From the NCBI GenBank assembly GCA_045647345.1, contig JAZRMG010000181.1, positions 1 through 56,297 of the forward strand: a stretch of DNA of 56,297 bases, written 5' to 3'. The notes beneath the pieces were generated by a model that saw only the letters and a list, made by a program, of their open reading frames with translations, was not told the DNA's origin and did no database searches. Every line of letters starts with the position of its first letter. Position 1 is the stretch's first letter. Shown one piece after another: positions 2,141-49,589 of this stretch. The translations under genes and the position numbers were made by a program. Source of the DNA: Bacteroidaceae bacterium (GTDB lineage: Bacteria > Bacteroidota > Bacteroidia > Bacteroidales > Bacteroidaceae).

Positions 2141-4018
2141 ATGAAGTCGACAAACCAACTTAATCCTCAGGGTAGAGCAGTGCAGAAGGTAATCTCTGCT
2201 GAAAAACTGAAACGGCTACCTCTGATTGCGGGGCTTGCCTTTGCTGCTGTAGTGTGGACGTTGCTCAATGTGTTTGAATATGAATACCTCTTCCGTGTTC
2301 AAGAATTGTCTTTGTGGTTGCCAACAAAGGTCTACTTCGATGAACGTATGATGGTTCCTGGCGGACTGATGAGCTATATAGCCTGTTTCCTTACTCAGTT
2401 CTTCTATTATCCTTTGTTGGGTTCGTTCATTTATGTGGCGTTGCTACTCGTAGTGCAATGGCTCACGATGAAAGTGTTCAGTATTCCTAAGCGCCATGCT
2501 TTGTTGGCTCTTATTCCCAGTGTGCTGATTCTGTGCTGCTCTATGGTGGCTGGTTATTGGATATTCCAGATAAAGACTCAAGGCTATTTCTACTCCATGT
2601 TGGTAGGTTTTCTGTTTGTTCTTTCAGCTATGCGTCTCTATCAGGTTGCCAGGGGAGGATGGCGATATCTTTTAGTCGTTGCGGTTGCTGTTGCCGGCTA
2701 TCCGTTCTTTGGTTTTTATGCTTCTTTGGCGTTATTGGGCATTGCTCTATATAGCTTGCGTGTGGGCTCTGAGGGACGGGGAATTATAGCTCTGATTTGC
2801 GTTTCGGCTGTCGTGGCTATTCCTATATTATATTATAATGTATATGAACAGACTCGTTTTGTGCGTATGTTCACTGCTGGAATGCCCGCATTTCAGTTCT
2901 CGTCGCGTGATCTTTTTACATGGATTCCTTATGTCTTGCTCTATCTCTTTCCGCTGGTGATGCTGTTTGTGCCTTTGAAGAAAGAGGAAGATGCCGTGCG
3001 TGCAACTTTCTTTATGTTGGAGGGGATAGGGGGGATTATCTTAATTGTTGCCCTTGGACTTGTTTTCTGGTTTCGTGACCCCAACTTCCGCGCTGAAATC
3101 AAGATGAATCATCATATGGAACGTCTCGAATGGCGTAAGGTGCTTGACATAGCCAAGGAGTGTGAAGGAACCCCGACTCGCTTGATGGTGCTCAACAAGA
3201 ATCTCGCACTGCTCAAGCTGGGTCGAGCAGGTGATGAGATGTTCCATTACCTTGATGGCGGTGAAGCACCGGCTTCGCCTTTTCCGATACGTTTGATGCA
3301 GGTGGGCGGCAAGATGCTCTATTACCACTATGCCCGTATGAATTTCTGTTACCGTTGGTGCCTCGAAGATGCCGTTGAGTATGGTTGGAAGGTCGACTAT
3401 TTGAAATACATGGTGCGTACTTCTATCGTGTCGGGTGAATATGAGCTTGCTCGGAAATATATCAACACCTTGAAGAAGACGCTCTTCTATAAGGATTGGG
3501 CCGCGAAGTACGAAAAAATGCTTGATAATCCTGCACTTATAGCTAAAGATCGTGAGTTTGCCAGTATCCTTCCCTTGTATCAGTTCGAGGACCAATTGGA
3601 TGGAGATAATACGTTGGTAGAGATTTATCTACTCAACTACTTTGCCCATACATACAATGAGCTTAACACGCCTATGTTTGATGAGGCGGCGCTTATGTGT
3701 GCTCTTACGTTGAAGGATATTCCCACCTTCTGGAATTGCTTCTTCCGCTATGCCAATAGTCACAAGACCAGTCGCATGCCTACTCACTATCAAGAAGCTG
3801 CGTTGCTCTATGGTAACTTGGAGAAGACGGTAGATATCAGTAATATGCCTTTTGATAAGACTGTGAAGATGCGTTTCCAGGACTTTATGCGCTTCGCTCA
3901 GAAGCATGCAGTGGAGAATGTGGAGCGTGACCCTGAGGTAAAGAAACTTTTCTATGACCGCTATGGTGATACCTTTTGGTATTTTTATTTCTTTATTAGA
4001 GATGTGAAATCATATTGA
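2141..4018 (+). CDS. Polytopic inner-membrane protein with a C-terminal soluble helical domain (resembles the DUF6057 family; function unknown)
   Basis: 625-aa ORF. The N-terminal ~300 aa consist of many hydrophobic helices (LIAGLAFAAVVWTLL, FIYVALLLVVQWL, LALIPSVLILCCSMVAGYWIF and others). The C-terminal ~320 aa are soluble, helical and Y/W/K-rich. The family name is from memory only. Confidence 0.75.
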   Translation: MKSTNQLNPQGRAVQKVISAEKLKRLPLIAGLAFAAVVWTLLNVFEYEYLFRVQELSLWLPTKVYFDERMMVPGGLMSYIACFLTQFFYYPLLGSFIYVALLLVVQWLTMKVFSIPKRHALLALIPSVLILCCSMVAGYWIFQIKTQGYFYSMLVGFLFVLSAMRLYQVARGGWRYLLVVAVAVAGYPFFGFYASLALLGIALYSLRVGSEGRGIIALICVSAVVAIPILYYNVYEQTRFVRMFTAGMPAFQFSSRDLFTWIPYVLLYLFPLVMLFVPLKKEEDAVRATFFMLEGIGGIILIVALGLVFWFRDPNFRAEIKMNHHMERLEWRKVLDIAKECEGTPTRLMVLNKNLALLKLGRAGDEMFHYLDGGEAPASPFPIRLMQVGGKMLYYHYARMNFCYRWCLEDAVEYGWKVDYLKYMVRTSIVSGEYELARKYINTLKKTLFYKDWAAKYEKMLDNPALIAKDREFASILPLYQFEDQLDGDNTLVEIYLLNYFAHTYNELNTPMFDEAALMCALTLKDIPTFWNCFFRYANSHKTSRMPTHYQEAALLYGNLEKTVDISNMPFDKTVKMRFQDFMRFAQKHAVENVERDPEVKKLFYDRYGDTFWYFYFFIRDVKSY

Positions 4019-4079: not shown

Positions 4080-5588
4080 ATGAAATACTCTCCCTTCCAC
4101 ATCCTCCTTCTTGGAGCCGCCCTGCTTGCAGGATGTACTGCTTCCGTGCCCGAACAGTACTCTGAGGCTGGAATTGCCCCCACAGTGTATCCAGACTATT
4201 CTGATGGTATAACTATTCCTTATAATATTGCTCCCCTCAACTTTGCCTATACGATGGAAGGGGAGAAATATGTTACAGAACTCAAGGCGGGGGAGCAATC
4301 TTTAGTAGTGAAAGGTAAACAAACCGATTGGGATATCAAGAAATGGCATACTTTCCTCGATAACAACAAGGGTAGATACATAGAGGTTAATGCTTATGTG
4401 CAGACCGACAATGGCTGGCAGAAATATCGTCCCATCACTTGGCGTGTAGCCGAAGAACCTGTCGACCCTTATATCTCATATCGTATCATTGCCCCTTCGT
4501 ATGTTACTTATGAAGAACTTAGCATACGTCAACGTGAATTGGGAACCTTTGATGAGGATATCATTTATAATAATATGCTGCTTAGTACCGATGAGGACGG
4601 ACAGTGTATCAACTGCCACTCATACAAGAACTATAAGACGGATCATATGCAGTTTCATGCCCGTCAGCATAAAGGAGGTACGCTTATTGTCAATGGTGAG
4701 GAGGTGCGCAAGGTGAGCCTCAAGACCGATTCCACCATATCGGCAGGCGTATATCCCGCATGGCATCCCACACACAATCTCATCGCCTACTCGGTGAACG
4801 ATACAGGTCAGTCGTTTCATACCAAGAAGAATAATAAGATTGAGGTGCAGGACCTCAAGAGCGACCTTATCCTCTATGATGTTGACCGCAACGAGGTGAG
4901 CCATATCGAGAACGACACGTTGGAATGGGAGGTGTTCCCCGCTTGGGCTCCCGATGGTAAGACCCTCTACTACTGTTCGGCGCATCTGGAGATACAGGAT
5001 CATGCGCAACGTGAACGTGATATTATCGACCGCTACCGCGACTTCAAGTACAATATCTACCGCAAGGCGTTTGATCCGGAAACCAAGACCTTCGGTCCCT
5101 CTGAACTGGTGCTCGATGCTCGTGCTATGGGCAAGAGCGCTACCTTCCCTCGCATTTCACCCGATGGCCGTTACCTGCTTTTCGGTATGGGAGAGTATGG
5201 TTGTTTTCATATCTGGCATAAAGATGCTGATTTATATATTATTGATTTGGAAACCATGAAGTTGCGCAATGTTCGTGAGGTCAATAGCGATGATGTGGAA
5301 AGCTATCATGCATGGTCAAGTAATGGACGATGGATGCTCTTTACTTCTCGCCGTGATGATGGTGGATATACTCGTCTCTATCTCGCCTATTTCGACAAAC
5401 GTGGTAGAGCACACAAACCCTTCTTGTTACCGCAACGCGACCCTTATTTCTATGGCGATTATTACAAGAGTTATAATGTGCCTGAGTTTATGGTCGAGCC
5501 GGTAGCGATTACTCCACAAGAATTTGCTGACTATCTTAATCAAGATGCCCAGTCGGCAATATTTCAAAGTCAATTCAAAGTGAAATGA
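4080..5588 (+). CDS. Lipoprotein with a single CXXCH motif and PD40/TolB-like beta-propeller repeats
   Basis: 502-aa ORF with a lipobox (LLAGC). It carries the motif GQCINCHSY and PD40-like repeats (AWAPDGKTLYYCS, FPRISPDGRYLLF, HAWSSNGRWMLFTSRRDDGGYTRLYLAYFD). It starts 62 nt after the preceding gene on the same strand. Confidence 0.75.
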   Translation: MKYSPFHILLLGAALLAGCTASVPEQYSEAGIAPTVYPDYSDGITIPYNIAPLNFAYTMEGEKYVTELKAGEQSLVVKGKQTDWDIKKWHTFLDNNKGRYIEVNAYVQTDNGWQKYRPITWRVAEEPVDPYISYRIIAPSYVTYEELSIRQRELGTFDEDIIYNNMLLSTDEDGQCINCHSYKNYKTDHMQFHARQHKGGTLIVNGEEVRKVSLKTDSTISAGVYPAWHPTHNLIAYSVNDTGQSFHTKKNNKIEVQDLKSDLILYDVDRNEVSHIENDTLEWEVFPAWAPDGKTLYYCSAHLEIQDHAQRERDIIDRYRDFKYNIYRKAFDPETKTFGPSELVLDARAMGKSATFPRISPDGRYLLFGMGEYGCFHIWHKDADLYIIDLETMKLRNVREVNSDDVESYHAWSSNGRWMLFTSRRDDGGYTRLYLAYFDKRGRAHKPFLLPQRDPYFYGDYYKSYNVPEFMVEPVAITPQEFADYLNQDAQSAIFQSQFKVK

Positions 5589-32058: not shown

Positions 32059-32220
32059 GTAATATAGCAGTTTGCTAGTGGAACTTGTCATGCTGAACGT
32101 AGTGAAGCATCTCGCAAATGTTTCTTGCTAAGTCCCAGCGCGGGATCCTTCCGACGCTACGCTCTGTCAGGATGACACTCAGCGCGGAGAGAAAGCTTCT
32201 TTGGACAACAGCTATTTTAG
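32059..32220. repeat. Copy B of the ~165-bp nested-palindrome repeat element, inverted relative to copy A
   Basis: Bases 32138-32195 (gcgcgggatccttccgacgctacgctctgtcaggatgacactcagcgcggagagaaag) are the exact reverse complement of 25274-25331. The flanks are about 90 percent similar by manual alignment. Track ORFs 24935..25351(-) and 32118..32321(+) share the peptide RGILPTLRSVRMTLSAERK for this reason. Confidence 0.85.
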
Positions 32221-32227
32221 CATTGGT

Positions 32228-32300
32228 GTCATATCGAACGCATGTGAGATATCTCTGTCGTCCGTTTTTTTTGAGATCCCTCACTGCGTGTCGGGATGAC
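32228..32300. repeat. GTCAT...GATGAC hairpin element (family copy) abutting copy B
   Basis: The left arm is gtcatatcgaacgcatgtgagatatctc and the right arm is gagatccctcactgcgtgtcgggatgac. The loop is tgtcgtccgttttttttga. Confidence 0.7.
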
Positions 32301-33908: not shown

Positions 33909-33954
33909 GTCATCTCGAACGGAGTGAGAGATCCCTCGCCCTGCTCGGGATGAC
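33909..33954. repeat. Compact GTCATC...GATGAC hairpin element (family copy)
   Basis: The sequence is gtcatctcgaacggagtgagagatccctcgccctgctcgggatgac. The arms pair at about 19 of 25 positions. The element is flanked on both sides by ggtttagtgt (33901-33910 and 33961-33970). Confidence 0.7.
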
Positions 33955-34638: not shown

Positions 34639-34794
34639 CTACATCTTTTTTTGTCGTTCCTGCTTGGTGCAACAGACCGCCAAAGACCTTGCGCAAGTGA
34701 TTTTGTTTCAGTGAAATAAAAAAATATCGCACCTGCGGCGCTCCGCGCTCGCAGGTGCGTGAATAATCGTTCGTGGGGCAGAAAATACCCAAAG

Positions 34795-34988
34795 GTCAAC
34801 AGTAAACAGTCAACAGTTACTTTGCTCTGTCACCCCCTTTTTCGCTTTCGTCAGCGCCTATAATAATAGGGCTTATTTATTTATTAAATATACGTAGTAT
34901 ATATAAATAATAAATAAGACTTTTTTTATATGAACATTTCAAGCCCTGATGTGAGTGCGCTAATTATCTGTTGACTGTTACTGTTGAC
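34795..34988. repeat. 21-22-bp inverted repeats built of CAGT/CAAC words, flanking a 150-bp spacer with an AT-rich imperfect palindrome
   Basis: gtcaacagtaaacagtcaacag (34795-34816) pairs with ctgttgactgttactgttgac (34968-34988), with one indel. The spacer holds cttatttatttattaaatatacgtagtatatataaataataaataag, centred on TACGTA (34891-34896). The right arm overlaps the last codons and stop of the HUH-Y1 gene. Confidence 0.8.
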
Positions 34989-36399
34989 ACATCTCCTCTG
35001 CTATCACATTCATCGCTACAAAGCGGTAGCGCCCCGTGGTGTGGGGTATGTTGCCCGTCTTGGCCGTTACGCGCCGGGCTATCTCGGGGCGCTCCAGCGC
35101 CCCGGCGTGCGGCTCTACCAGCAGCAGGCGCCCCGCGGCGCATGCCTCGAAGTACACCCCCTGAGGCTTGTAGTAGCGGTAGTGGCTGCTCTCGGGGTTG
35201 GGGAAGCCCTGCTCCAGCAGGATGATGAGCGGGAAGCCGTGCTCGCGCAGCGAGCGTGCTATCACCTTCTCGCCCTGCGATATGGCGGCGGTGATGAATA
35301 CCGCACCGTTGGCAGCCTGCATCAGGCATTCGTGCCTGCGTGCCTCGATCTGCTCGGGGGTGAGGCGCCGCGAGCATTGCAGCACCTGCCGCTGCGGATG
35401 CCCGGCAAGGAAGATGTTGCCCAGCACCGTACACGGGAAGCCACCTACGGTATAGTCTTGCCTGATGCGGAACAGCTCGCGGTTGGCCCTCTTCAGCGCC
35501 AGGCGCCGCGGGTTGTCCTTGATGTAGCTCTTCATGCGTGCCAGCTGTCCCCTGCCATAGAGCAGGCTGTCGTGATACTCGTGGGCGAAGAGGAGGAGGT
35601 TGCGGCTCTTGGGGCTCACCATACTCGCGGAGACACCCGCGAGTACCCGACGCGCCGCCTCGCGCGATGCATCGCTGCCAGCGCCCCATGCCCCAGTCGT
35701 AGCGCCCGCGCCAGCATGGGTGGGCGTGGCACCAGTGGCGTCGCTTGCGGTGGTGGCGCTTGTGTTGGTGTTGGTGGTGTCGCTTGCGGTGGTGTTGTTG
35801 GCGTTGTTGTTTGTGTTGGTGTTGTTGGTGGTGTTGTTGGTGTCGCTTGCGTTGGCGTTGTTTGTGTCGCTTGCGTTGGTGGTGTTGGTGTTGTTTTTGG
35901 TGTTAGCATTGCTTGCGTTGGCGTTAGCGTTATTGTTCTCGCGGCTATCTCCGCGAGCCATCCCTGATCCTGCCATCCCTGATCCCGCCATCCCCGTGCC
36001 CGCCATCACCTCGCGAGCCGTTTCCACCATGGCCGTGAAGGCATCGCTGCACTGCACCTTGAACCATCGTATATACTGCCCCAGGTGCCTGGGCAGCCTA
36101 TCGTGGATGTGTAGCAAGATGTGCACATGGTCGGGCATGATCACATAGTCGAGGATCTCTATCGAGGCGGCGCCCAGGTAGGTGGGTATGCGCTCTATCT
36201 CTGCGGCCACTGCCGAGCCCAGTGCCGTGAGGGCTACGGTATTGCCTTGCAGCACGCCCAGGAGCGGCCTGCGATCTACGGTCACCAGCGTCAGCATCTG
36301 TATGGATGGTGACTGGTAGTCCATCCATCGGGCGCGGTAGAGGTGCTCTCTGAGCTTCTCGCACCGCCACCCCTCGGGTGTGAGGTGTGCCTTAGCCAT
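34978..36399 (-). CDS. HUH-Y1 (IS200/RAYT-like) transposase-domain protein with an internal low-complexity insert and a C-terminal extension
   Basis: The HUH motif is DYVIMPDHVHILLHI, with the HVH codons at 36121-36129. The Tyr motif is LFAHEYHDSLLYGRGQLARMKSYIKDNPRRL, with the Y codon at 35575-35577. About 135 aa of MAG(S/T)G x4 and N/T/A/S-rich sequence lie between them. A ~165-aa C-terminal domain follows. I prefer the start at MAKAHLT (36399) because a -7 box lies inside the longer track ORF. Confidence 0.75.
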   Translation of the reverse strand: MAKAHLTPEGWRCEKLREHLYRARWMDYQSPSIQMLTLVTVDRRPLLGVLQGNTVALTALGSAVAAEIERIPTYLGAASIEILDYVIMPDHVHILLHIHDRLPRHLGQYIRWFKVQCSDAFTAMVETAREVMAGTGMAGSGMAGSGMARGDSRENNNANANASNANTKNNTNTTNASDTNNANASDTNNTTNNTNTNNNANNTTASDTTNTNTSATTASDATGATPTHAGAGATTGAWGAGSDASREAARRVLAGVSASMVSPKSRNLLLFAHEYHDSLLYGRGQLARMKSYIKDNPRRLALKRANRELFRIRQDYTVGGFPCTVLGNIFLAGHPQRQVLQCSRRLTPEQIEARRHECLMQAANGAVFITAAISQGEKVIARSLREHGFPLIILLEQGFPNPESSHYRYYKPQGVYFEACAAGRLLLVEPHAGALERPEIARRVTAKTGNIPHTTGRYRFVAMNVIAEEMCQQ

Positions 36400-36420
36400 G
36401 CTTGCAGTTTCTTCTTGCCG

Positions 36421-36428
36421 CAAAGATA
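36421..36428 (-). promoter_or_regulatory. -7 promoter element (TAtcTTTG on minus strand) for the HUH-Y1 gene
   Basis: Plus-strand caaagata lies 21 nt upstream of ATG 36399. Confidence 0.45.
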
Positions 36429-36561
36429 CAAAAGTATCTCCGAGTTTCAATTCAAAAGAGAGTGCTTTTTGTTCTCTCCGTCCGTCCATCAGCCCGTCCT
36501 TCCGTTCTCGCGGGTGTCTCTGCGGGTAAAAGAGAGGTCAGCACACCCTCCCAGATAACAG

Positions 36562-36590
36562 CACGGGAGCGCCTGGTGGGCGCTCCCGTG
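36562..36590 (-). terminator. Hairpin terminator of the LRR gene
   Basis: A perfect 12-bp stem, cacgggagcgcc / ggcgctcccgtg, with a 5-nt loop. It lies 32 nt downstream of the LRR gene stop at 36622. Confidence 0.7.
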
Positions 36591-36621: not shown

Positions 36622-37536
36622 TTACATGCCTGTCTTCACCATCACCTTCTTGCCGTCCACGATGTATATGCCGTCCTTGGTGGGGGTGGCTACGCGGCGG
36701 CCGTGGAGGTCGTAAATTGTTATTCGTGCATTGTCAATTGTCAATTGCTCCACGCCCATCTCCTCGTCGGTGAGTGCCACGATGTTGCCGAAGCTGCTCC
36801 AGGGAGCGGTAGTCTTATAGCTTTCAATAGCGCTGGCAGGTACATGCAGGGTGGCATACTCGATGTATGAGCCATTGAAGGCATCACTCTCTGCCGAGGG
36901 CACCTTCTCGGCATAGCAGTACACATCGGTCAGCTCGGGGCAGCCCGCAAAGGTCTCGCTATTAATATACTTTACACTCTTGGGCAGCACGATCGTGGTG
37001 AGGCTGCTGCAACCCTGGAAAGCATAGATTCCAAAGCTCGTCACGCCCTCGGGGATGTTGATGGCGGTGAGGCTGCTGCACAGATAGAAAGCATAGCCTC
37101 CAATGCTTGTCACGCCCTCGGGGAGGATGATGGCGGTGAGGCTGCTGCAACTCATGAAAGCAGATTCTCCAATGCTCGTCACGCCCTCGGGGATGGTGAT
37201 GGCGGCGAGGCTGCTGCAACCCCAGAAAGCACCGTTTTCAATGCTCGTCACGCCCTCGGGGAGGGTGATGGCGGTGAGGCTGCTGCAAAGAGCTAAAGCA
37301 CCCTCTCCAATGCTCGTCACGCTATATGCCACGCCATCGTAGGTGACGGTGGCGGGGATGGTGATAGAGCCGGAGTAGTCGTTATCGTAATAAGGATCAT
37401 CTCCCTTGTAGGTCACCTCGGCCTGCTTGGCCTTAGATACGAGGTTATACCAGATGCCGTCGATCTCGACTTTGGTTTGCGCACTGGCCAGCATGGGCAG
37501 CAGGGCTGCGAAAAGGAATAGTAGATGCTTCTTCAT
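36622..37536 (-). CDS. BspA-type leucine-rich-repeat surface protein with a T9SS C-terminal sorting domain
   Basis: 304 aa with a signal peptide (LPMLASAQ). Five 23-aa repeats are present (SLTAITLPEGVTSIENGAFWGCS and variants). The C-terminal tail ITIYDLHGRRVATPTKDGIYIVDGKKVMVK is typical of Por/T9SS CTDs. Confidence 0.85.
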   Translation of the reverse strand: MKKHLLFLFAALLPMLASAQTKVEIDGIWYNLVSKAKQAEVTYKGDDPYYDNDYSGSITIPATVTYDGVAYSVTSIGEGALALCSSLTAITLPEGVTSIENGAFWGCSSLAAITIPEGVTSIGESAFMSCSSLTAIILPEGVTSIGGYAFYLCSSLTAINIPEGVTSFGIYAFQGCSSLTTIVLPKSVKYINSETFAGCPELTDVYCYAEKVPSAESDAFNGSYIEYATLHVPASAIESYKTTAPWSSFGNIVALTDEEMGVEQLTIDNARITIYDLHGRRVATPTKDGIYIVDGKKVMVKTGM

Positions 37537-37876: not shown

Positions 37877-38770
37877 ATGACCTACCAACGCTTACCCCAA
37901 GTTCCACCGATGGAACTGCCCGAAGAATTGAAAGAGACGTTTGCCCTGCTCGAGGCGCAGGGCTTGAACCCCGAGTTGTGCGACACGCCCGTGCCCTACT
38001 TCGATGCGGGCATCCCTTGCGGCAGTCCGCGCGAGGTGTATGAGGCCACGCCCGACGGCTACATCCTGGTGCCCCGCTCGCTCGTGGGCAATGATGCCAC
38101 GGTGATAGCGCGCGTGACGGGCGACTCGATGAAGGATGCCGGCATCGAGCACGATGACCAGCTGCACATCCTGCTCGACGCACCGGTGCACGATGGCGAT
38201 GTGGTGGTGGCCTGCATCGATGGCGAGTGCACGGTGAAGTCGTACTACAAGGATGCCGATGGTGCTGTGTGGCTGGTGCCACGCAACGATGACTACCGTC
38301 CCATACGCATCACCGAGGAGATGAACGCGCATATCGTGGGTAAGGTCATCTCGCACCGCAAGCCTGCTCCGCGCACCTCGTTCAGCTACATGCAGCGTGC
38401 CGTGGAGCGCACGCTTGCCGAGCGTGCCGAGGCGGCAGCTACCGTGATCCATACGACGGACGAGGTGCGCAACATGCTGCTGGAGGCATGTGTGGGGACG
38501 ATGACCGTATCGGCCGACTGGATTGCCGTGTACCGCATCCTTGTGGATAGGTGTGGTGCTCCCTCTTCGTTCAAGGCCTTTGCCGAGTATGTCAACGACC
38601 TAGCGCTTGATGAGCTGCCCCCGTGCACTGCCGACTCGTTGCGCAAGGCCGACCCCGTGTATCTGCGGCCTCTCTTTGAGTGGACTCCCGAGAGGGCTCC
38701 CAAGGTGCGTGTATCTATCCTTGACAAGCGTCTCTCTATGGCTCGCGCACTGCGTAAGATGCTGGCATAG
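37877..38770 (+). CDS. S24 (LexA/UmuD-like) self-cleaving peptidase domain protein with a C-terminal domain of unknown function
   Basis: 297 aa. The sequence VPYFDAGIPCGSPREV...ARVTGDSMKDAGIEHDDQLHILLDAPVHDGDVVVACIDGECTVKSYY carries the Ser (GDSM) and Lys (TVKS) dyad. It also has a CG/AG-type cleavage-site-like segment. No N-terminal HTH is visible. Residues ~170-297 are unassigned. Confidence 0.75.
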   Translation: MTYQRLPQVPPMELPEELKETFALLEAQGLNPELCDTPVPYFDAGIPCGSPREVYEATPDGYILVPRSLVGNDATVIARVTGDSMKDAGIEHDDQLHILLDAPVHDGDVVVACIDGECTVKSYYKDADGAVWLVPRNDDYRPIRITEEMNAHIVGKVISHRKPAPRTSFSYMQRAVERTLAERAEAAATVIHTTDEVRNMLLEACVGTMTVSADWIAVYRILVDRCGAPSSFKAFAEYVNDLALDELPPCTADSLRKADPVYLRPLFEWTPERAPKVRVSILDKRLSMARALRKMLA

Positions 38771-38780
38771 CACCTCTGGT

Positions 38781-38874
38781 ATTTTGCCCAGAAGTTGGCC
38801 AAATTTTGGCCGCTCATTCCAAGAGTTTGGCCGCTCGGGCAAGAATTTGCCCATAAGTTGTCCATAAGTTGTCC
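38781..38874. promoter_or_regulatory. Helically phased array of seven (A)AnTTGNCC words between the S24 gene and its terminator
   Basis: TTGCCC/TTGGCC/TTGTCC words start at 38784, 38795, 38806, 38827, 38847, 38858 and 38869. The spacings are 11, 11, 21, 20, 11 and 11 bp. Confidence 0.5.
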
Positions 38875-38875
38875 T

Positions 38876-38906
38876 CCCTCACCGAGATTTTCGGTGGGGG
38901 ATTTTT
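38876..38906 (+). terminator. Rho-independent terminator downstream of the S24 gene
   Basis: The stem ccctcaccga / tcggtggggg includes one G-U pair, has the loop gattt, and is followed by attttt. Confidence 0.7.
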
Positions 38907-39081
38907 GTATGCGTAACTTCGCATTGTCAACGATGCCGACGCGGTATGAAAGCGTCGGTTGCGACGACGGGAGGTTTATCTCCCCAAAGGAGTAATTATT
39001 AACCCGGGTAGTGGGCCGAGGAGATTTCTCGAGAATCAGGTGGCCGCCGTTTCTGAAGCTCGCCCATTAAACGAAACAACA

Positions 39082-39864
39082 ATGAACACAACAATTCAGA
39101 TTTTCGAGAATGCCGAGTTTGGCAAGGTAAGGACAATGCAGGATGCCGAGGGCGAACCGCTCTTCTGCGCCAAGGATGTGGCAGTAGCATTGGGGTATGG
39201 CAATAGCCGTGAAGCGTTGCGAAAACATGTGGAGCAAGAGGATGTCACAAAACGTGACACCCCAACCGCAGGAGGGACCCAGCAGATGCAGTATGTGAAC
39301 GAGAGCGGCCTCTATGCCCTCATCCTGGGCTCTAAACTTGATAGCGCCCGCCGATTCAAGCACTGGGTGACCTCGGAGGTATTGCCCGCCATACGCCGAC
39401 AGGGCGGCTACATGGTGGCTCGCATGAACGAGAGCGACGAGGTGATCATGGCCCGCGCACTGCAGATCATGCAGGCCACACTGGAGCGTCGCGACCGCGA
39501 GATAGCGCTGCTCAAGCCACGCGCCGAGTATGCCGACCACGTGCTCGACTCCATCGCCTGTCTCACCGTGACGCAGATAGCCAAGGAGCTCTCCATGACG
39601 GGCCACGAGCTCAACCGCCTGCTCTGCCAGCGCGGCATCCAGTACCCGCAATCGGGGCAGTACCTCCTCTACGCCAAGTATGCCCGCCGCGGCTATGCGC
39701 AGAACCGCACGCACGAGTGGTGCAACACCATGGGCGAACTCGTGACACGCACCTACTTGGTGTGGACGGAGGCGGGACGGGAGTTTATACACCAGCTGGT
39801 GCACGGTGCTGAATATTTCGTTCCCACACGAAATACACAAGACTCACAAAGGGCAGGTCGCTAA
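39082..39864 (+). CDS. Phage-type antirepressor (BRO-N domain plus KilAC/ANT C-terminal domain)
   Basis: The reading from ATG 39082 begins MNTTIQIFENAEFGKVRTMQDAEGEPLFCAKDVAVALGY...ESGLYALILGSKLDSARRFKHWVTSEVLPAIRRQGGY, which is the BRO-N domain. It continues ADHVLDS..LTVTQIAKELSMTGHELNRLLCQRGIQY, which is KilAC-like. The track ORF starts 123 nt upstream. Confidence 0.8.
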   Translation: MNTTIQIFENAEFGKVRTMQDAEGEPLFCAKDVAVALGYGNSREALRKHVEQEDVTKRDTPTAGGTQQMQYVNESGLYALILGSKLDSARRFKHWVTSEVLPAIRRQGGYMVARMNESDEVIMARALQIMQATLERRDREIALLKPRAEYADHVLDSIACLTVTQIAKELSMTGHELNRLLCQRGIQYPQSGQYLLYAKYARRGYAQNRTHEWCNTMGELVTRTYLVWTEAGREFIHQLVHGAEYFVPTRNTQDSQRAGR

Positions 39865-40115
39865 CGCCCTTGCACCCTCCGGATAACCTTTTTCTTCTCA
39901 CGCAGAATCCGCAGAAAACGCAGAGGCAAGTCGCTACGCCCTTGCTGTCGGCGTTGCCGCCGAGTGTTCTCATCCGGAGGTACATACGAGCGATAGCGAT
40001 GTATGAAGGTCTGCGCAAGTCCGCGATTTCTGCGTGAGAAACAAGAAGCTCTGCGTGAGACAATCTCCGCGATGCAAGCAATAAACAATCAAACAATCAA
40101 AAAAAACTACACAAT

Positions 40116-40511
40116 ATGAAACAATATTTTAATAGCAACGAGACCTTCGAACATTGCGAGGTGAAGGTGAGCCAGGACGGTCGCATCGAGATACATACCC
40201 CGAGTTTCTACACTGCCGAGCTGGAGCGCCTGGGCAAACCTGAGAAGACCATCCGCGGCCGCGTGAAAATGGTGGAGAAGGACTTCATCTTCGAACCCTA
40301 TGCCGAGAACTCGCGCAAGCCTACCTTCTCGAAGCAGGTGGTGGTGGGCAGCACCACGCTGGGCGTGACCGAGGATAAGCTGAAACTCTCTATGGTAATG
40401 CCTCGCCACATGCGCAAGGAGCTCATGGTGATGTACATACAGGCCGAGATCGATGAGGTGAAGCGCAGGCTGGAGGAGGACCTATACAATAAATTGAAAA
40501 TTGAGAATTGA
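40116..40511 (+). CDS. Hypothetical protein (131 aa)
   Basis: An intact ORF with a G-free leader. I recognise no motif. The last codons (NKLKIEN*) run into a 7-bp ATTGARA tandem array (40492-40523). Confidence 0.55.
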   Translation: MKQYFNSNETFEHCEVKVSQDGRIEIHTPSFYTAELERLGKPEKTIRGRVKMVEKDFIFEPYAENSRKPTFSKQVVVGSTTLGVTEDKLKLSMVMPRHMRKELMVMYIQAEIDEVKRRLEEDLYNKLKIEN

Positions 40512-40579
40512 GAATTGAAAATTCGTGCAAGCGAGCGCAGCCGAATTTCGACGAAGTCAAAATTGAAACCCGCGTCTCT

Positions 40580-40696
40580 GTCATCCTGAGCGAAGCGAAT
40601 GGATCCCGCGCGGTGGCTATGAAACGTCGCGTGAGACTCATCGAAGAGGATTGCGCCAGGTCCTAACGCGAGATCCCTCTCTACGCTCGGGATGAC
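40580..40696. repeat. GTCATCC...GGATGAC long hairpin element (family copy)
   Basis: The left arm is gtcatcctgagcgaagcgaatggatcccgcg and the right arm is cgcgagatccctctctacgctcgggatgac. About 57 bp lie between the arms. It is flanked by word arrays: ATTGARA x4 on the left and cacactaaactctaaaaac on the right. Confidence 0.8.
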
Positions 40697-40736
40697 ACGA
40701 CACACTAAACTCTAAAAACGACACTCTAATCAAAAC

Positions 40737-41150
40737 ATGAAATATTTTAAGATAGACGAACTCACCCACAGCCTCAGAGCGCAGGCCTGCGGCATCGACA
40801 ATACGCCTCCTGCCTCGGCCGTACCTCTGATGGTGGAACTCATCACCAAGGTGCTCGACCCCATCCGCGAAAAGTGGCAGTCGCCCATCTACATCACTAG
40901 CGGCTACCGCTGCCCCATGCTGAACAAGAAGGTGGGCGGTGTAGAGAACAGCTATCACCTGCGCGGCATGGCAGCGGACATCACGGCCAAGAGCGTGTTC
41001 TACAACACGGCACTCTACACCGAGATACGCATCCTGCATGCCAAGGGACTCATCCCCCTCACCGAGTGCTACATGCACCGCCAAGGGCTATACATCCACG
41101 TGGCGTATGACCCAGCCGCACCGAGCGACAATCCGTTCTTCACAAAGTAG
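40737..41150 (+). CDS. Peptidase M15A-family (D-Ala-D-Ala carboxypeptidase / phage endolysin-like) zinc metallohydrolase
   Basis: 137 aa: FKIDELTHS...ACGIDNTPP...ITSGYRCPMLNKKVGGVENSYHLRGMAADI...LYIHVAYD. It carries the H-x6-D ... H pattern of Peptidase_M15_3. Confidence 0.75.
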   Translation: MKYFKIDELTHSLRAQACGIDNTPPASAVPLMVELITKVLDPIREKWQSPIYITSGYRCPMLNKKVGGVENSYHLRGMAADITAKSVFYNTALYTEIRILHAKGLIPLTECYMHRQGLYIHVAYDPAAPSDNPFFTK

Positions 41151-41284
41151 GAGACCCACCCCATCCCTCCCTGTGAGGGAGGGGGTGCGGAGTCCACTGA
41201 AAAGAGTGTTTAGTATTTAACAAACCCCACCACGCAGCGATGTCTGCAAGTCCTCCCTCACAGGGAGGATTTAGGTGGGTCTCC
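41150..41284. repeat. 135-bp element with ~33-bp terminal inverted repeats, each arm itself a hairpin
   Basis: The left arm is ggagacccaccccatccctccctgtgagggaggg. The right arm is cctccctcacagggaggatttaggtgggtctcc. The inner self-complementary cores are at 41165-41183 and 41251-41269. The element starts in the M15 stop codon and ends 11 nt before the primase-helicase ATG. Confidence 0.8.
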
Positions 41285-41295
41285 TATATTTTTTT

Positions 41296-43698
41296 ATGAT
41301 AAATTACGTCAACAACTCATTCGATAAAGTGCTGAAGCCGTGCGATGCTCAGCAATTTATGACCCTCACCCAAAGCGAGCAGACCGAGAAACTCATTCTC
41401 GGTCATCGCGCAGGGGAGAAGAATAGCAAGGCCAAGTTGCCTGCACTCACCTATATGGGCGTGCTCGACGAGGCCAAGTATAAGGAATATTTGAAGAAAT
41501 GCGAGGCGCAGGGCACCAAGCCGCTCGGCTCGCGTCGCATCGACTTCATGCGCCCCACGGGGCTCTTGATGCTCGACTTCGACCATGTACAGACCCCCTC
41601 CAACCTCCCCCTCTATGGGGAGGCTTCACAGGCATCGCGGACTATCATTGACTCTCCCGTGAAGTTGTGGGAGTATATCGTGAATGTTTATGATAATGTG
41701 GACTTGCCCCTTACTGAGTGGGTCTGTCTCGCCCACATCACGCCCAGCGGCGATGGCTTGCGTGTGGTAGTGAAGCGCACCGAGGGCACTACCATCGAGC
41801 AGGAGCAGTACGAATGGTGCAAGGCAATGAAACTCGATGCCGTAGGTATCAAGCCCGATGCCGCGTGCAAGGACATCTCGCGCCTGTCGTTCGCTCCCAT
41901 GCAGAAGGAAATCTTGTATTACAACCCCTCACTGCTCTTTGCCCCACTGCCCGAAGCGAAGGATTACCCCGATGGTTCCATCTTTGGAGTGTCTCCTGTC
42001 ATCCTGTGCAACGCGAAGGATCTCGCAGAGTGTAATGGTGAGAATGGCTTGCAAGGTCCCTGCGCGGGATCCTTCGCATCCGCTCAGGATGACACGAAGG
42101 GTGCGGTTTCTTTCCCCACAGACTACAATGGAGTGGAATATGAGGAGATTGTCCGTCGCCTCGAAGAACAGCTTGGCGGCCGCCCCGAGCATGGCGCGCG
42201 CAACTCGTTCATCTTCTCCATGGCCTGTAACCTGCGCTACATCTGCAATGACGATGCCGCATGGATAGCTCAGATACTCCCCACCTATGGCGAAGACCCG
42301 CAGAAGCAGCGCGCCACCATTCAGAGTGCTGTGAACCGCCCCATGAGTCGCACCATGCCCGAGACCATGAGTCGCGCCATCCGTATCGCCAAACTGGGAG
42401 CCGAGGTGGATAAATCAGAAATCAGAAATCATAAATCAGAATTGCCACCGGCAATGCCATCGGCTTTGCCGGAGCTAATGGAACTGCTCACCTCACGCAC
42501 GCCCGACAAGATGCGTGCTGCCGTGGCCATGAGTGTGTTCCCACCGCTCGGTGCTCACCTGCAGGATGTGAAGTTTACCTATTGGGATGGCCGCGACTAC
42601 GAACCCTCGTTTATGAATGTGCTCGCCGCTCCGCTCTCGGCAGGTAAGAGCGCCGTAAACATCCCCATCGACTATCTCATTGCCGACATCGAGGCGCGCG
42701 ACGAGGTGGCACGCGAGAAGGAGGCTGCGTGGAAGGAGCGCTGCGCCACACTGAAGACCACCGAGGATAAGCCTGCGCGTCCCAAGGGATTGAGCGTGCA
42801 AGTGCTCTCGTCGGATATGACCAATGCTGCCTTCGTGCAGCGACTCTCCGATGCCGAGGGTAAGTTCCTCTACACGCAGATGGACGAGATAGAACTGCTC
42901 AACGGCCTCAAGGCCAACGGCTCCTCTGACGTGGTGAGTGCCATCTTGCGACTCGCCTTCGACTGCGGCAAGTATGGTCAGGAGCGCGTGGCCTCGAACG
43001 CCATCAACGCCAAGGTGCGCGTGCGGTGGAACTGGAATGCCTCGACCACCATACAGCGCGTGCGCAAGTATTTTGCCAAGAACATTGCCGATGGTACCCT
43101 CTCGCGCCTCTCCTTCGCCACCATCATCAAGGACGAGGATGACTGGGGCGAGCAGCGCCCCAAGTTCGCGCAGTATGGGCAGCCCTTTGCCGATGCCCTG
43201 CAGCCCTATATCGACCGCCTGTGTACCTGCTCGGGTACGCTCGTGTGCCCCGAAGCCATCGCGTGGGCTGAGCAGATGTGTGATGAGCAGGTCGCCTATG
43301 CTCGCGAGATAGACGACCGCACCTATGCGCAGTTCTCGTTCCGCTCGGTGCTCATGGGCTTCTACCGCGCCATGCTGCTCTACATCGCCCACGGCATGCA
43401 GTGGTCGGGCGAGATTGCCGAGTTTGCCGCATGGAGCGTGCGCTACGACATGTGGTGCAAGATGCGTTTCTTCAGCGACATGATGCACAAGGATATGGAA
43501 GAGGAGCGCTCTGCCGTGCAGCGTGGCCCCGTATCACTGCTCGCCCTGCTGCCGCAGGAGTTTACCAAGCAGCAAGTGCAAGAGGTGCGCGTGGCGCAGG
43601 GGATGAGTCCGAATCCGAAAAATATGCTGAACTCTTGGAAGCAACGCGGATACATTGTTCTTGATCATGAGCGAGGCGTATATATGAAGTGTAAATAG
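41296..43698 (+). CDS. Primase-helicase-like replication protein (VirE/BT4734-type N-terminal domain, PriCT-like middle, DUF3987-type P-loop C-terminal domain)
   Basis: 800 aa from ATG 41296; the track ORF begins at GTG 41275, inside the upstream inverted repeat. The motifs are LPALTYMGV...GLLMLDFDHV...LAHITPSGDGLRVVVKR...DISRLSF, followed by the PriCT-like ARNSFIFSMACNLRY. Walker A is APLSAGKSAV (about 42630-42660) and the Walker B-like motif is FLYTQMDEIE. Confidence 0.8.
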   Translation: MINYVNNSFDKVLKPCDAQQFMTLTQSEQTEKLILGHRAGEKNSKAKLPALTYMGVLDEAKYKEYLKKCEAQGTKPLGSRRIDFMRPTGLLMLDFDHVQTPSNLPLYGEASQASRTIIDSPVKLWEYIVNVYDNVDLPLTEWVCLAHITPSGDGLRVVVKRTEGTTIEQEQYEWCKAMKLDAVGIKPDAACKDISRLSFAPMQKEILYYNPSLLFAPLPEAKDYPDGSIFGVSPVILCNAKDLAECNGENGLQGPCAGSFASAQDDTKGAVSFPTDYNGVEYEEIVRRLEEQLGGRPEHGARNSFIFSMACNLRYICNDDAAWIAQILPTYGEDPQKQRATIQSAVNRPMSRTMPETMSRAIRIAKLGAEVDKSEIRNHKSELPPAMPSALPELMELLTSRTPDKMRAAVAMSVFPPLGAHLQDVKFTYWDGRDYEPSFMNVLAAPLSAGKSAVNIPIDYLIADIEARDEVAREKEAAWKERCATLKTTEDKPARPKGLSVQVLSSDMTNAAFVQRLSDAEGKFLYTQMDEIELLNGLKANGSSDVVSAILRLAFDCGKYGQERVASNAINAKVRVRWNWNASTTIQRVRKYFAKNIADGTLSRLSFATIIKDEDDWGEQRPKFAQYGQPFADALQPYIDRLCTCSGTLVCPEAIAWAEQMCDEQVAYAREIDDRTYAQFSFRSVLMGFYRAMLLYIAHGMQWSGEIAEFAAWSVRYDMWCKMRFFSDMMHKDMEEERSAVQRGPVSLLALLPQEFTKQQVQEVRVAQGMSPNPKNMLNSWKQRGYIVLDHERGVYMKCK
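41998..42093. repeat. GTCATCC...GGATGAC hairpin element embedded in frame inside the primase-helicase CDS
   Basis: The sequence is gtcatcctgtgcaacgcgaaggatctcgca ... cgcgggatccttcgcatccgctcaggatgac. It is 96 nt long and translates as VILCNAKDLAECNGENGLQGPCAGSFASAQDD. Confidence 0.75.
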
Positions 43699-49381: not shown

Positions 49382-49389
49382 CAAAATTA
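49382..49389 (-). promoter_or_regulatory. -7 promoter element (TAatTTTG on minus strand) for rplY-pth
   Basis: Plus-strand caaaatta sits inside tgcaaaattagtgcaaaccgagcgaaa, about 104 nt upstream of ATG 49277. Confidence 0.45.
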
Positions 49390-49451
49390 GTGCAAACCGA
49401 GCGAAAATGCAAATTTATTTGCGATTTTCCGAGGTGCAGCCTAATTTCAGG

Positions 49452-49589
49452 CTACGAAGTAGGCTAAAGGTAGTGCAAACCGAGCGAAACCTTCAAGCTG
49501 CGAAGCAGATTAAAATTAGTGCAAACCGAGCGAAACCCACAGTCTGCGAAGTAGACTAAAGGTAGTGCACCAACGCATGAGCAAACAAG
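49452..49589. repeat. Three 46-bp tandem repeats containing the core TAGTGCAAACCGAGCGAAA
   Basis: The units start at 49452, 49498 and 49544; the third is diverged. A fourth copy of the core lies at 49388-49406. The core is the reverse complement of the tttcgctc..ttgcacta motif at 50462-50480, upstream of nusB. Confidence 0.8.

Follow-up and report, generated by a model that had tools for sequence, protein, structure and literature searches.

A gene from a Bacteroidaceae bacterium encodes a protein in which a predicted single-stranded DNA (ssDNA) endonuclease of the HUH/Y1 type, related to the REP-associated tyrosine transposases (RAYTs), is joined to a divergent relative of DprA. The gene lies within a stretch of 56 kb (assembly GCA_045647345.1, contig JAZRMG010000181.1, positions 1 to 56,297), the whole of which is referred to here as the window. 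Its product consists of three parts: an HUH/Y1 core, a disordered insert, and a DprA-like C-terminal domain (Table 1). The reading that we favor, and that is probably correct, is that the protein is a host-retained, RAYT-like class-2 HUH/Y1 ssDNA endonuclease with a DprA-like domain, and that it acts on hairpins in ssDNA. The cleavage chemistry, the binding of ssDNA by the C-terminal domain, and the identity of the substrate are proposed by homology only.

The gene resides in a single long minus-strand open reading frame at 34978-36489, which specifies 503 amino acids (aa) when counted from its first ATG. This in-frame ATG, at 36489, would lengthen the fusion protein by 30 aa relative to an ATG at 36399. 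The N-terminus that begins at 36399, MAKAHL (MAKAHLTPEGWRC...), is common to nearly all homologues, and thus the 473-residue product that starts there is likely to be the true one. The original prediction had described this same frame as a split Y1 domain followed by an extension; the reading frame and its architecture are real, and the N-termini of the homologues support the start.

The HUH motif is present as first described, within PDHVHILLHI, where P-D-H-V-H are residues 89 to 93. In a sequence search of the PDB, the HUH of the window protein aligns to the HUH of ISDra2 and IS200. Since a plain sequence search of the PDB with the full protein yields no significant match, profiles are needed. 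An alignment of 85 diverse members of the family reveals that M88, P89, D90, H91, H93, Y292, N296, and E377 are invariant. The catalytic tyrosine had been placed at Y275, within a supposed tyrosine helix, FAHEYHDSLLYGRGQLARMKSYIKDNPRRL. This segment is present and codon 35575-35577 does indeed specify tyrosine, but Y275 is not the catalytic residue: it lies on strand beta4 (EYHD), it is not invariant among the 85 members, and its position corresponds to the 'W-Q/E-x-R-F/Y' segment of RAYTs. The predicted nucleophile is Y292, because Y292 and N296 are both invariant, because Y292-I-K-D-N296-P fits 'YIxxNP', the tyrosine motif by which class-2 TnpAY1 proteins are defined (PMC6006769, Table 1), and because this motif sits on a predicted helix, residues 285 to 305, whereas Y275 varies. 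With HUH, Y292, and N296 all present and invariant, the catalytic motifs are intact rather than degraded, as had been claimed. Judged by residue conservation, the Y1 core appears to be catalytically intact, with a putative cleavage chemistry.

The predicted structure agrees with this assignment. An AlphaFold2 (AF2) model, made with the 85-sequence alignment, has a predicted local distance difference test score (pLDDT) above 90 at 316 residues and folds the two halves of the Y1 core together. The Y1 fold, beta-alpha-beta-beta-alpha-beta-alpha, is recovered with pLDDT above 90, and includes a long helix at residues 106-134, strand beta4 at 271-279, and the helix at 285-305. Foldseek gives a probability of 1.00 for the N-terminal module against 2XM3, 2A6M, 2VJU, 2F4F, and 4ER8 (IS608, ISDra2, IS200, and RAYT structures). 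The Pfam Y1_Tnp and NCBIfam REP_Tyr_transpos profiles match the window protein at residues 76-130, around the HUH motif, but below their cut-offs; for Y1_Tnp (PF01797) the score is 21.2 bits against a cut-off of 23 bits. The window protein falls short because the insert splits the Y1 domain. Insert-free orthologues exceed the Y1_Tnp gathering threshold, P0086 with 27.5 bits and P0076 with 24.6 bits; the former aligns to profile positions 34-121 of 121, and the alignment of the latter stops at most one position short of the profile's end. Together, the passing of the Pfam threshold by short orthologues and the Foldseek matches to IS608, ISDra2, IS200, and the RAYT 4ER8 support the HUH-Y1 identity that had been proposed.

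The C-terminal extension, first estimated at ~165 aa, is real and comprises 168 aa, over which the AF2 model has a pLDDT of 96.8. It begins with a beta-hairpin and continues as a four-stranded parallel alpha/beta sheet. No model of Pfam (scanned with 44 diverse C-terminal domains), NCBIfam, PADLOC, or PHROGs covers this region, and thus it is not an already annotated RAYT appendage; Pfam PF02481 (DNA_processg_A) matches one of the 44 domains weakly, with an E value of 0.066. The suggestion that the extension might be DprA/SLOG-like is upheld by three comparisons, all of which rank DprA first. When a profile of the 44 domains is compared with the PDB, the top 4 matches are the DprA proteins of H. 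pylori and S. pneumoniae (E 0.045-0.34), and the alignment pairs 'GN.FLL..P...V.CSR' with 'G...LL..P..VAIIGTR' of DprA. When the C-terminal domain is compared with the PDB by Foldseek, the best 12 matches are all DprA (4LJK, 4LJL, 4LJR, 5MLL, 3MAJ, 3UQZ) or ShosA (8ZVA), with probabilities of 0.97-1.00 for eleven of them and 0.57 for the twelfth, 3UQZ, and with query-normalised template-modeling (TM) scores of 0.47-0.50. Beyond this set the probability is ~0.4 or less, and the weaker matches include LOG and TRPM SLOG domains. In a Foldseek search with the full-length model, the DprA/ShosA set again provides the only confident matches other than transposases.

The third comparison employs hhalign and a DprA profile of nine sequences, E. 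coli Smf and eight diverse DprA proteins from phage records. The resulting alignment has a probability of 80.6%, an E value of 1.3e-5, and 125 collinear columns, in which positions 17-168 of the C-terminal domain fall on DprA columns 17-142 of 204. It supersedes an alignment with the single E. coli Smf sequence, which had a probability of 5.7% and was off-register. The elements brought into register with DprA are GN..LL (in the lead-in GN..LL..P), [GC]-[ST]-R (the [G/C]-S-R loop), S-x-x-x-x-G-[ID]-[DE] (a helix start, S-x-x-x-x-G-[I/E]-[D/E]), G-[FL]-x (a turn, G-F/L-x), and F-x-x-x-N (a helix). Thus, the domain is collinear with the first two-thirds of the Rossmann domain of DprA/Smf (PF02481; 4LJK, 4LJR, 5MLL, 3UQZ, 3MAJ), and a complete DprA Rossmann domain of ~205 aa is not present.

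Motif 1 of DprA, G-S/T/A-R, occupies the loop that follows the first Rossmann strand and includes R52 of the H. pylori protein, which is essential for binding ssDNA; motif 2, F/L/Y-x-x-R-N/D, lies in helix alpha6 (PMC3950713). C342-S343-R344 of the fusion protein aligns to motif 1; conservation is 90% or more at S343 and R344, but the glycine is replaced by cysteine or other residues. At the position of motif 2, Asn464 is invariant and the arginine is replaced by methionine or leucine. The domain therefore keeps the Ser-Arg of the DprA ssDNA pocket together with the acidic and Asn signature positions. Unlike DprA, it is fused to a nuclease and has neither a SAM nor a winged-helix domain. Both Foldseek and hhalign detect similarity at the level of the fold to the SLOG superfamily (DprA-LOG Rossmannoid). 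Together, these comparisons indicate that the C-terminal domain is a divergent, truncated DprA-like domain, which is assigned at the level of the SLOG superfamily and is closest to DprA, but is not a canonical DprA.

The insert that separates the two halves of the Y1 core is ~110-140 aa long, and ~139 aa relative to the short orthologues. In the AF2 model, residues 135-242 lack regular secondary structure, and pLDDT is below 50 at 151-180 and 182-234 before rising by ~241. Two kinds of repeat had been noted here, and both are present, although their sizes differ from those first given. The 15-bp units encoding MAG(S/T)G number 3.4 by Tandem Repeats Finder (TRF) rather than four; they encode MAGTG-MAGSG-MAGSG-MA, three full units and a partial one, MARGD. 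The minisatellite that follows them extends over ~190 nt by TRF rather than 250; it is GT-rich on the plus strand, its arrays overlap, and it encodes a sequence rich in N/T/A/S, as was stated, and also in D.

Within an alignment of 20 relatives that are 57-97% identical, the insert is the sole hypervariable region. Many orthologues of 326-348 aa have ~10 residues in its place, and elsewhere unrelated repeats occupy the same site (HTSARPALAA(T/V) in P0073, TTNNREASTTxQAPS in P0040). P0001, P0002, P0003, and the window protein are otherwise essentially identical alleles, and their N/T-rich tracts differ by up to ~90 aa, always in frame. The earlier thought that orthologues might vary in the length of the insert or lack it altogether is thus borne out. 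Because it is absent, replaced, or polymorphic in length among orthologues, the insert is a recurrent, slippage-driven, in-frame expansion in a permissive surface loop. It is no conserved functional module, and it is dispensable for the Y1 fold. As such it offers a handy strain marker as well as an example of a permissive loop in this fold.

At the other end of the gene, a 98-bp deletion around 34978-34990 distinguishes the window from a sister strain (L089:1960-2080, protein P0002). Lost with it are ~12 codons at the end of the frame, the stop codon that followed them, and some of the 3' untranslated region; the window protein ends in ...EEMCQQ, and that of the sister strain in ...EEMCGDHAPMNQTL. 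According to the alignment of orthologues, the lost tail is only a non-conserved extension. The same region contains an AT-rich palindrome (34865-34925) in an otherwise GC-rich genome; on either side of it are inverted GTCAACAGT(A/T)A repeats, which overlap the Y1 stop codon. A palindrome with CTGTTGAC inverted repeats at 34795-34988 was considered as a miniature inverted-repeat transposable element that had truncated the gene. This idea was rejected: the palindrome is not a recent insertion, because the sister strain carries it too and the strains differ by the 98-bp deletion. The sequence at 34795-34988 might serve the downstream HU-HIG gene as promoter or terminator.

Genes for Y1-DprA-like proteins are numerous. 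A search with an insert-free query returns 666 matches among clusters of 90% identity, the 120 listed being 222-557 aa long, and a search with the C-terminal domain alone returns 644 clusters at 50% identity; the family thus has at least 644. Most proteins of at least 300 aa that have the C-terminal domain carry P-[DN]-H-x-H, with Y-x-x-x-N-P immediately before that domain. The 80 genome loci that were retrieved are all from metagenome-assembled genomes of Bacteroidales of the gut and rumen (Bacteroidaceae, Paludibacteraceae, Muribaculaceae, Prevotella, and Sodaliphilus); the patterns for this search were drawn from close relatives, and the restriction to Bacteroidales holds for that search. 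Source databases name these proteins 'hypothetical protein', 'transposase' (two relatives at NCBI), or 'RayT', and full-text literature searches found no description of a Y1-DprA fusion. The Y1-DprA-like proteins are a large, unannotated RAYT-like subfamily, so far found only in Bacteroidales.

Both domains are under purifying selection. Between the window protein and its orthologues, the ratio of nonsynonymous to synonymous substitution rates (dN/dS) ranges from 0.16 to 0.28 in the N-terminal Y1 core and from 0.11 to 0.18 in the C-terminal domain. An orthologue with the same neighbors recurs in independent metagenomes, and synteny is kept among close relatives. Paralogues within a genome are few and 36-74% identical. 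A tblastn search of 72,556 plasmids and 50,697 phage records gave no full-length match; the sole plasmid match is weak, confined to the N-terminal domain, and on a Fulvitalea plasmid, and there is none in phages. PADLOC and PHROGs gave no meaningful match, and therefore no support for a role in defense or in phages. Because its paralogues are divergent, its synteny is shared, it is under purifying selection, and full-length copies are lacking in these plasmids and phages, the gene, chromosomal and vertically inherited, behaves like a domesticated class-2 TnpAY1/RAYT and not like an insertion sequence (IS).

Of the characterized Y1 proteins, the RAYT/TnpAREP proteins (E. coli YafM, PDB 4ER8; class 2, PMC6006769) have the same HUH/Y1 fold, HuH motif, Y-I-x-x-N-P motif, and R..W.DY N-terminal signature. 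Also like RAYTs, the fusion genes are chromosomal and vertically inherited, occur as divergent paralogues in low copy, and are hairpin-flanked in a subset of members. Unlike RAYTs, the window protein scores 31.3 bits with NCBIfam REP_Tyr_transpos (NF047646), for which the cut-off is 80, the fusion protein has Phe-Ala in place of the conserved Trp of the 'W' motif, and the window copy is not directly flanked by repetitive extragenic palindromes (REPs). The TnpA proteins of the IS200/IS605 group (IS608, ISDra2, IS200) share the catalytic fold and the HUH motif and provide the best Foldseek and PDB matches to the N-terminal domain. However, they are single-domain proteins of 130-155 aa with a Y-x-x-x-Q motif, whose elements are near-identical and multicopy, have subterminal hairpins, and often carry TnpB, which is not the case here, no TnpB-type neighbor being annotated in the contexts that were looked up. 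With NCBIfam transpos_IS200 the window protein reaches 16.6 bits, short of the cut-off, which is 55.

Quentin et al. 2018 (PMC6006769) divided TnpAY1 proteins into 12 subclasses, which have median lengths of 148-325 aa and C-terminal additions consisting of Bac_DnaA_C, a helix-turn-helix (HTH), or short tails. The fusion family fits none of these subclasses, as lengths and HuH and Y motifs differ, and none has the 168-aa DprA-like domain. Subclass 2.1.2 (Bac_DnaA_C or HTH; PMC6006769) is nevertheless a precedent for a class-2 Y1 protein with a C-terminal nucleic-acid-binding domain and without IS features, although its appendage is an HTH of ~50-70 aa that binds double-stranded DNA, whereas that of the fusion protein is a larger Rossmannoid resembling an ssDNA binder. 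Another precedent is ShosA, the antitoxin of ShosTA (PDB 8ZVA; PMC11961720) and the second-best structural match to the C-terminal domain. It is an example of a DprA-like domain outside natural transformation, which binds ssDNA and promotes recombination (PMC11961720). Nine strands are reported for the sheet of ShosA versus four in the fusion protein, in which the last third of the Rossmann fold is missing. In addition, ShosA combines a SAM domain with a full DprA domain and is paired with a phosphoribosyltransferase toxin, whereas the fusion gene has no ShosT-like neighbor and no PADLOC match.

A possible substrate is suggested by the DNA around the gene. The window contains five imperfect palindromic elements of 46-117 nt, whose ends, TGTCAT(CC)...(GG)ATGACA, enclose a variable middle. 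They are all intergenic, all fold as ssDNA hairpins (z-scores -2.0 to -5.5), and all lie within ~6.4 kb of the center of the Y1 gene; the nearest is at 33909-33954. This clustering is suggestive, and the GTCAT...ATGAC element is a candidate substrate for the Y1 enzyme. The original prediction had set the gene among REP-like hairpins. The GTCATCC hairpin family does exist, with five elements 1-6 kb away, but none of them abuts the gene, and the hairpins directly beside it (36562-36590 and 34728-34759) are unique, differ from each other, and are probably terminators. As a partner for the family as a whole, the GTCAT...ATGAC element was rejected: in a scan of 88 related loci totalling 710 kb, it was found only in the window, in its closest relatives L001-L004, and as single marginal matches in L041 and L084. 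An Rfam scan of the whole window gave no match.

Across the family, flanking by cognate REP hairpins, a feature of RAYT genes in the strict sense, is lacking at the window gene and present in six of 75 other members. The same hairpin occurs within 400 bp on both sides of these 6/75 family genes versus 1/207 other genes of the same loci (Fisher p 0.0017), and the single flanked control gene borders a family gene. Thus, the family as a whole is linked statistically to hairpin repeats, while the link for the window copy is circumstantial. The clearest REPtron-like locus is L032, whose protein is 50% identical to that of the window. It has tandem arrays in the same orientation at 3600-3985 and 5110-5440, with a unit of 42-44 bp that contains the hairpin TTGTCCCAATGATGGGACAA; there are 9 hairpins upstream and 7 downstream, and the ATG of the gene falls within the last upstream unit. 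At L051, the hairpin GTTATCGGTCGAG(T/C)TCGACCGATAAC (GTTATCGGTCGAGTTCGACCGATAAC) is found 26 bp upstream and 3 bp downstream of the gene. REPtron-like loci such as L032 and L051 supply ready candidate substrates. A further locus, L031, was discounted as an example: its flanking hairpins are probably duplicated terminators, because they have A6/T6 ends and lie between tandem paralogues.

Under the reading that we favor, the Y1 module would bind a DNA hairpin exposed in ssDNA, with a divalent metal held by H91, H93, and N296, the last of which we predict to act as the third ligand, as Q131 does in IS608. Cleavage would occur at the foot of the hairpin through a 5'-phosphotyrosyl link to Y292. 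The DprA-like domain would most likely add ssDNA binding and/or dimerization, and may possibly contact recombination proteins. Several observations weigh against this reading. The window copy is without matching direct hairpin flanks, its nearest repeated palindromes being 1-6 kb away; the GTCAT...ATGAC family is limited to the closest relatives apart from the two marginal matches; hairpin flanking is found in only 8% of members; and no universally conserved neighbor gene across the family loci points to a pathway. With regard to the C-terminal domain, the structural match to DprA is moderate (TM ~0.5, root-mean-square deviation (rmsd) ~6 Å), the last third of the Rossmann fold is absent, and methionine or leucine stands where H. 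pylori DprA has the motif-2 arginine, a residue important for its binding of ssDNA.

The loss of this arginine and the truncation leave room for another role, either as a ligand-sensing SLOG module or as an interaction domain. In the former case, the C-terminal domain would act as in ThsA or LOG, and a nucleotide-derived ligand would switch the Y1 nuclease allosterically. DprA is itself a member of the SLOG superfamily, there are weak, lower-ranked Foldseek matches to LOG proteins and to the TRPM SLOG-like domain, one family member matches the Pfam YAcAr SLOG family (E 0.07), and the invariant E377 together with the conserved K411, C420, and N464 could line a small pocket. We nonetheless consider a sensor unlikely, since every confident match in sequence or structure is to DprA or ShosA rather than to LOG or ThsA, the domain lacks the LOG signature PGGxGTxxE, the pocket for ssDNA keeps its Ser-Arg, and neither a conserved nearby partner gene that could generate a nucleotide signal nor a PADLOC match is found. 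In the latter case, the resemblance to DprA would reflect generic Rossmann similarity, and the domain would be an independent appendage, for example a module for dimerization or protein interaction. The modest TM-score and rmsd fit such a view, as do Foldseek E values of 4e-3 or weaker, marginal HMMER E values against the PDB, the different register of the hhalign comparison with a single DprA, and the one weak DNA_processg_A match among 44 members. Yet three independent methods put DprA first with nothing else close, and the profile-profile alignment is collinear over 125 columns with the signature motifs in register, which makes generic similarity quite improbable.

Two other explanations concern the gene as a whole. 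If it encoded the transposase of an active IS200/IS605-type IS, then the hairpins flanking some members would be the subterminal hairpins of the left and right ends. The intact catalytic residues would suit a transposase, two relatives bear that name at NCBI, and at L043, L051, L057, L063, and L067 near-identical hairpins are located just upstream and downstream, as in the layout of IS200/IS605. However, orthologues hold the same chromosomal context across independent samples, within-genome paralogues are nowhere near 100% identical, the tyrosine motif is class-2 YIxxNP rather than the YxxxQ of IS200 (PMC6006769), no Pfam-annotated neighbor of the TnpB type (OrfB_IS605) occurs in the contexts that were looked up, and the window copy has no matching flanking hairpins. 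Given also the purifying selection on both domains and the absence of full-length plasmid or phage copies, an active IS is very unlikely. The remaining explanation is that the low-complexity expansion disrupted the Y1 fold and the gene is a decaying, non-functional relic. A long disordered insert does stand between the HUH motif and the Tyr motif, the window copy scores below the curated cut-offs of Pfam and NCBIfam, and this strain has lost its original stop codon with the last ~12 codons. But no allele is out of frame, however much the lengths differ, all catalytic and family-invariant residues are intact, dN/dS is low in both domains, the AF2 model folds the two Y1 halves together, and the deleted tail is a non-conserved extension. 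A relic is thus hardly credible.

The neighbors of the family genes are specific to clades: comM, a type IIG-like methyltransferase gene, or LRR_5/HU-HIG genes. In 14 loci of the Muribaculaceae type, the family gene is directly downstream of and co-oriented with comM/yifB, which encodes an Mg-chelatase-like AAA+ protein, with gaps of ~80-400 bp (L040, L046, L048, L050, L053, L059, L061, L062, L065, L069, L070, L078, L085, L087). The family proteins of these loci are 26-84% identical to each other; a lipoprotein gene precedes comM in 12 of the 14, and the downstream neighbors vary. This adjacency may point to a functional tie to transformation and recombination, or may be merely old synteny. 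A tentative and rather unlikely extension of the favored reading is that the fusion couples site-specific cleavage of ssDNA at hairpins to recombination. A REP-like hairpin, located for instance on the lagging-strand template or in incoming transforming DNA, would be nicked, the ssDNA would then be held, and the DprA-like domain would pass it to RecA or other recombination proteins.

Separate from these questions are some further features of the loci and of the window. In four Paludibacteraceae loci (L014, L016, L017, L018), the upstream gene encodes a protein of 870-925 aa that by eye resembles a type IIG restriction-modification/N6-adenine methyltransferase. The gene next to the fusion gene in the window, at 36622-37536 on the minus strand, contains 69-bp tandem repeats (36974-37322) that represent BspA-type LRR_5, an ordinary repeat structure in a secreted protein. 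Upstream of this LRR_5 gene, at 37877-43698, is a phage-like or island-like cluster, which also accompanies the orthologue in L001-L004. It encodes a Peptidase_S24 (LexA/UmuD-like) protein with a long C-terminal extension, a Bro-N/ANT antirepressor, Peptidase_M15_3, and a product of 807 aa with no Pfam match. The intergenic region at 49383-49583 contains three tandem units of 46 bp, TTCAGGCTACGAAGTAGGCTAAAGGTAGTGCAAACCGAGCGAAACC, with a small hairpin inside each, and a fourth, partial copy of the AGTGCAAACCGAGCGAAA core, and has no Rfam match. Finally, tandem 22-bp units, TTGCTGCTGCGCAAC..., each with the palindrome TTGCGCAA, are present at 1684-1769.

Table 1. Features of the Y1-DprA-like fusion gene and of the palindromic elements in the window.
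Feature	Position	Strand	Remarks
Y1-DprA-like fusion coding sequence	34978-36399	minus	473 aa; TAA stop at 34978-34980
Y1 core, first part (~residues 25-134)	35998-36327	minus	beta1, alphaA, beta2, beta3 with HUH, long helix
HUH motif, H91-V92-H93	36121-36129	minus	inside invariant M-P-D-H-x-H
Disordered in-frame insert (~residues 135-242)	35674-35997	minus	between long helix and beta4
15-bp tandem repeat x3.4, MAG(T/S)G units	35957-36007	minus	TRF, 88% matches
Degenerate minisatellite, periods 9/12/24/39/60 bp	35735-35925	minus	TRF and direct-repeat family D1
Y1 core, second part (residues 243-305)	35485-35673	minus	beta4 (LLFAHEYHD) and predicted catalytic helix alphaD
Y motif, Y292-I-K-D-N296	35512-35526	minus	Y292 at 35524-35526, N296 at 35512-35514
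DprA-like Rossmannoid domain (residues 306-473, 168 aa)	34981-35484	minus	AF2, Foldseek, profiles
C342-S343-R344, counterpart of DprA motif G-S/T/A-R	35368-35376	minus	hidden Markov model (HMM) and hhalign alignments
E377, on Asp of DprA 'G-I-D'	35269-35271	minus	invariant (A2, A3); in register with DprA D70 by hhalign
F460-V-A-M-N464, counterpart of DprA F/L/Y-x-x-R-N	35008-35022	minus	hhalign; N464 invariant in A3
GTCAT...ATGAC palindromic elements	32087-32176, 32228-32300, 33909-33954, 40580-40696, 41998-42093		alignment and scan

What domesticated Y1 transposases such as the RAYTs do for their hosts is a standing question (PMC5581495, PMC6006769), and the fusion is of interest because it offers a testable handle on this function. 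It defines a large domain family that is unannotated, whose members databases label only 'hypothetical' or 'transposase'. If the fusion does couple hairpin cleavage to recombination, then domesticated RAYTs would serve the host in recombination, in the processing of forks, or in natural transformation, and a shared pathway would account for the position of the gene, in 14 loci, directly downstream of the transformation helicase gene comM. The natural, widespread, and conserved joining of a RAYT-like nuclease to a relative of DprA is in itself a concrete and testable hint at RAYT function, and suggests that RAYT-like enzymes may act on ssDNA together with the recombination machinery.

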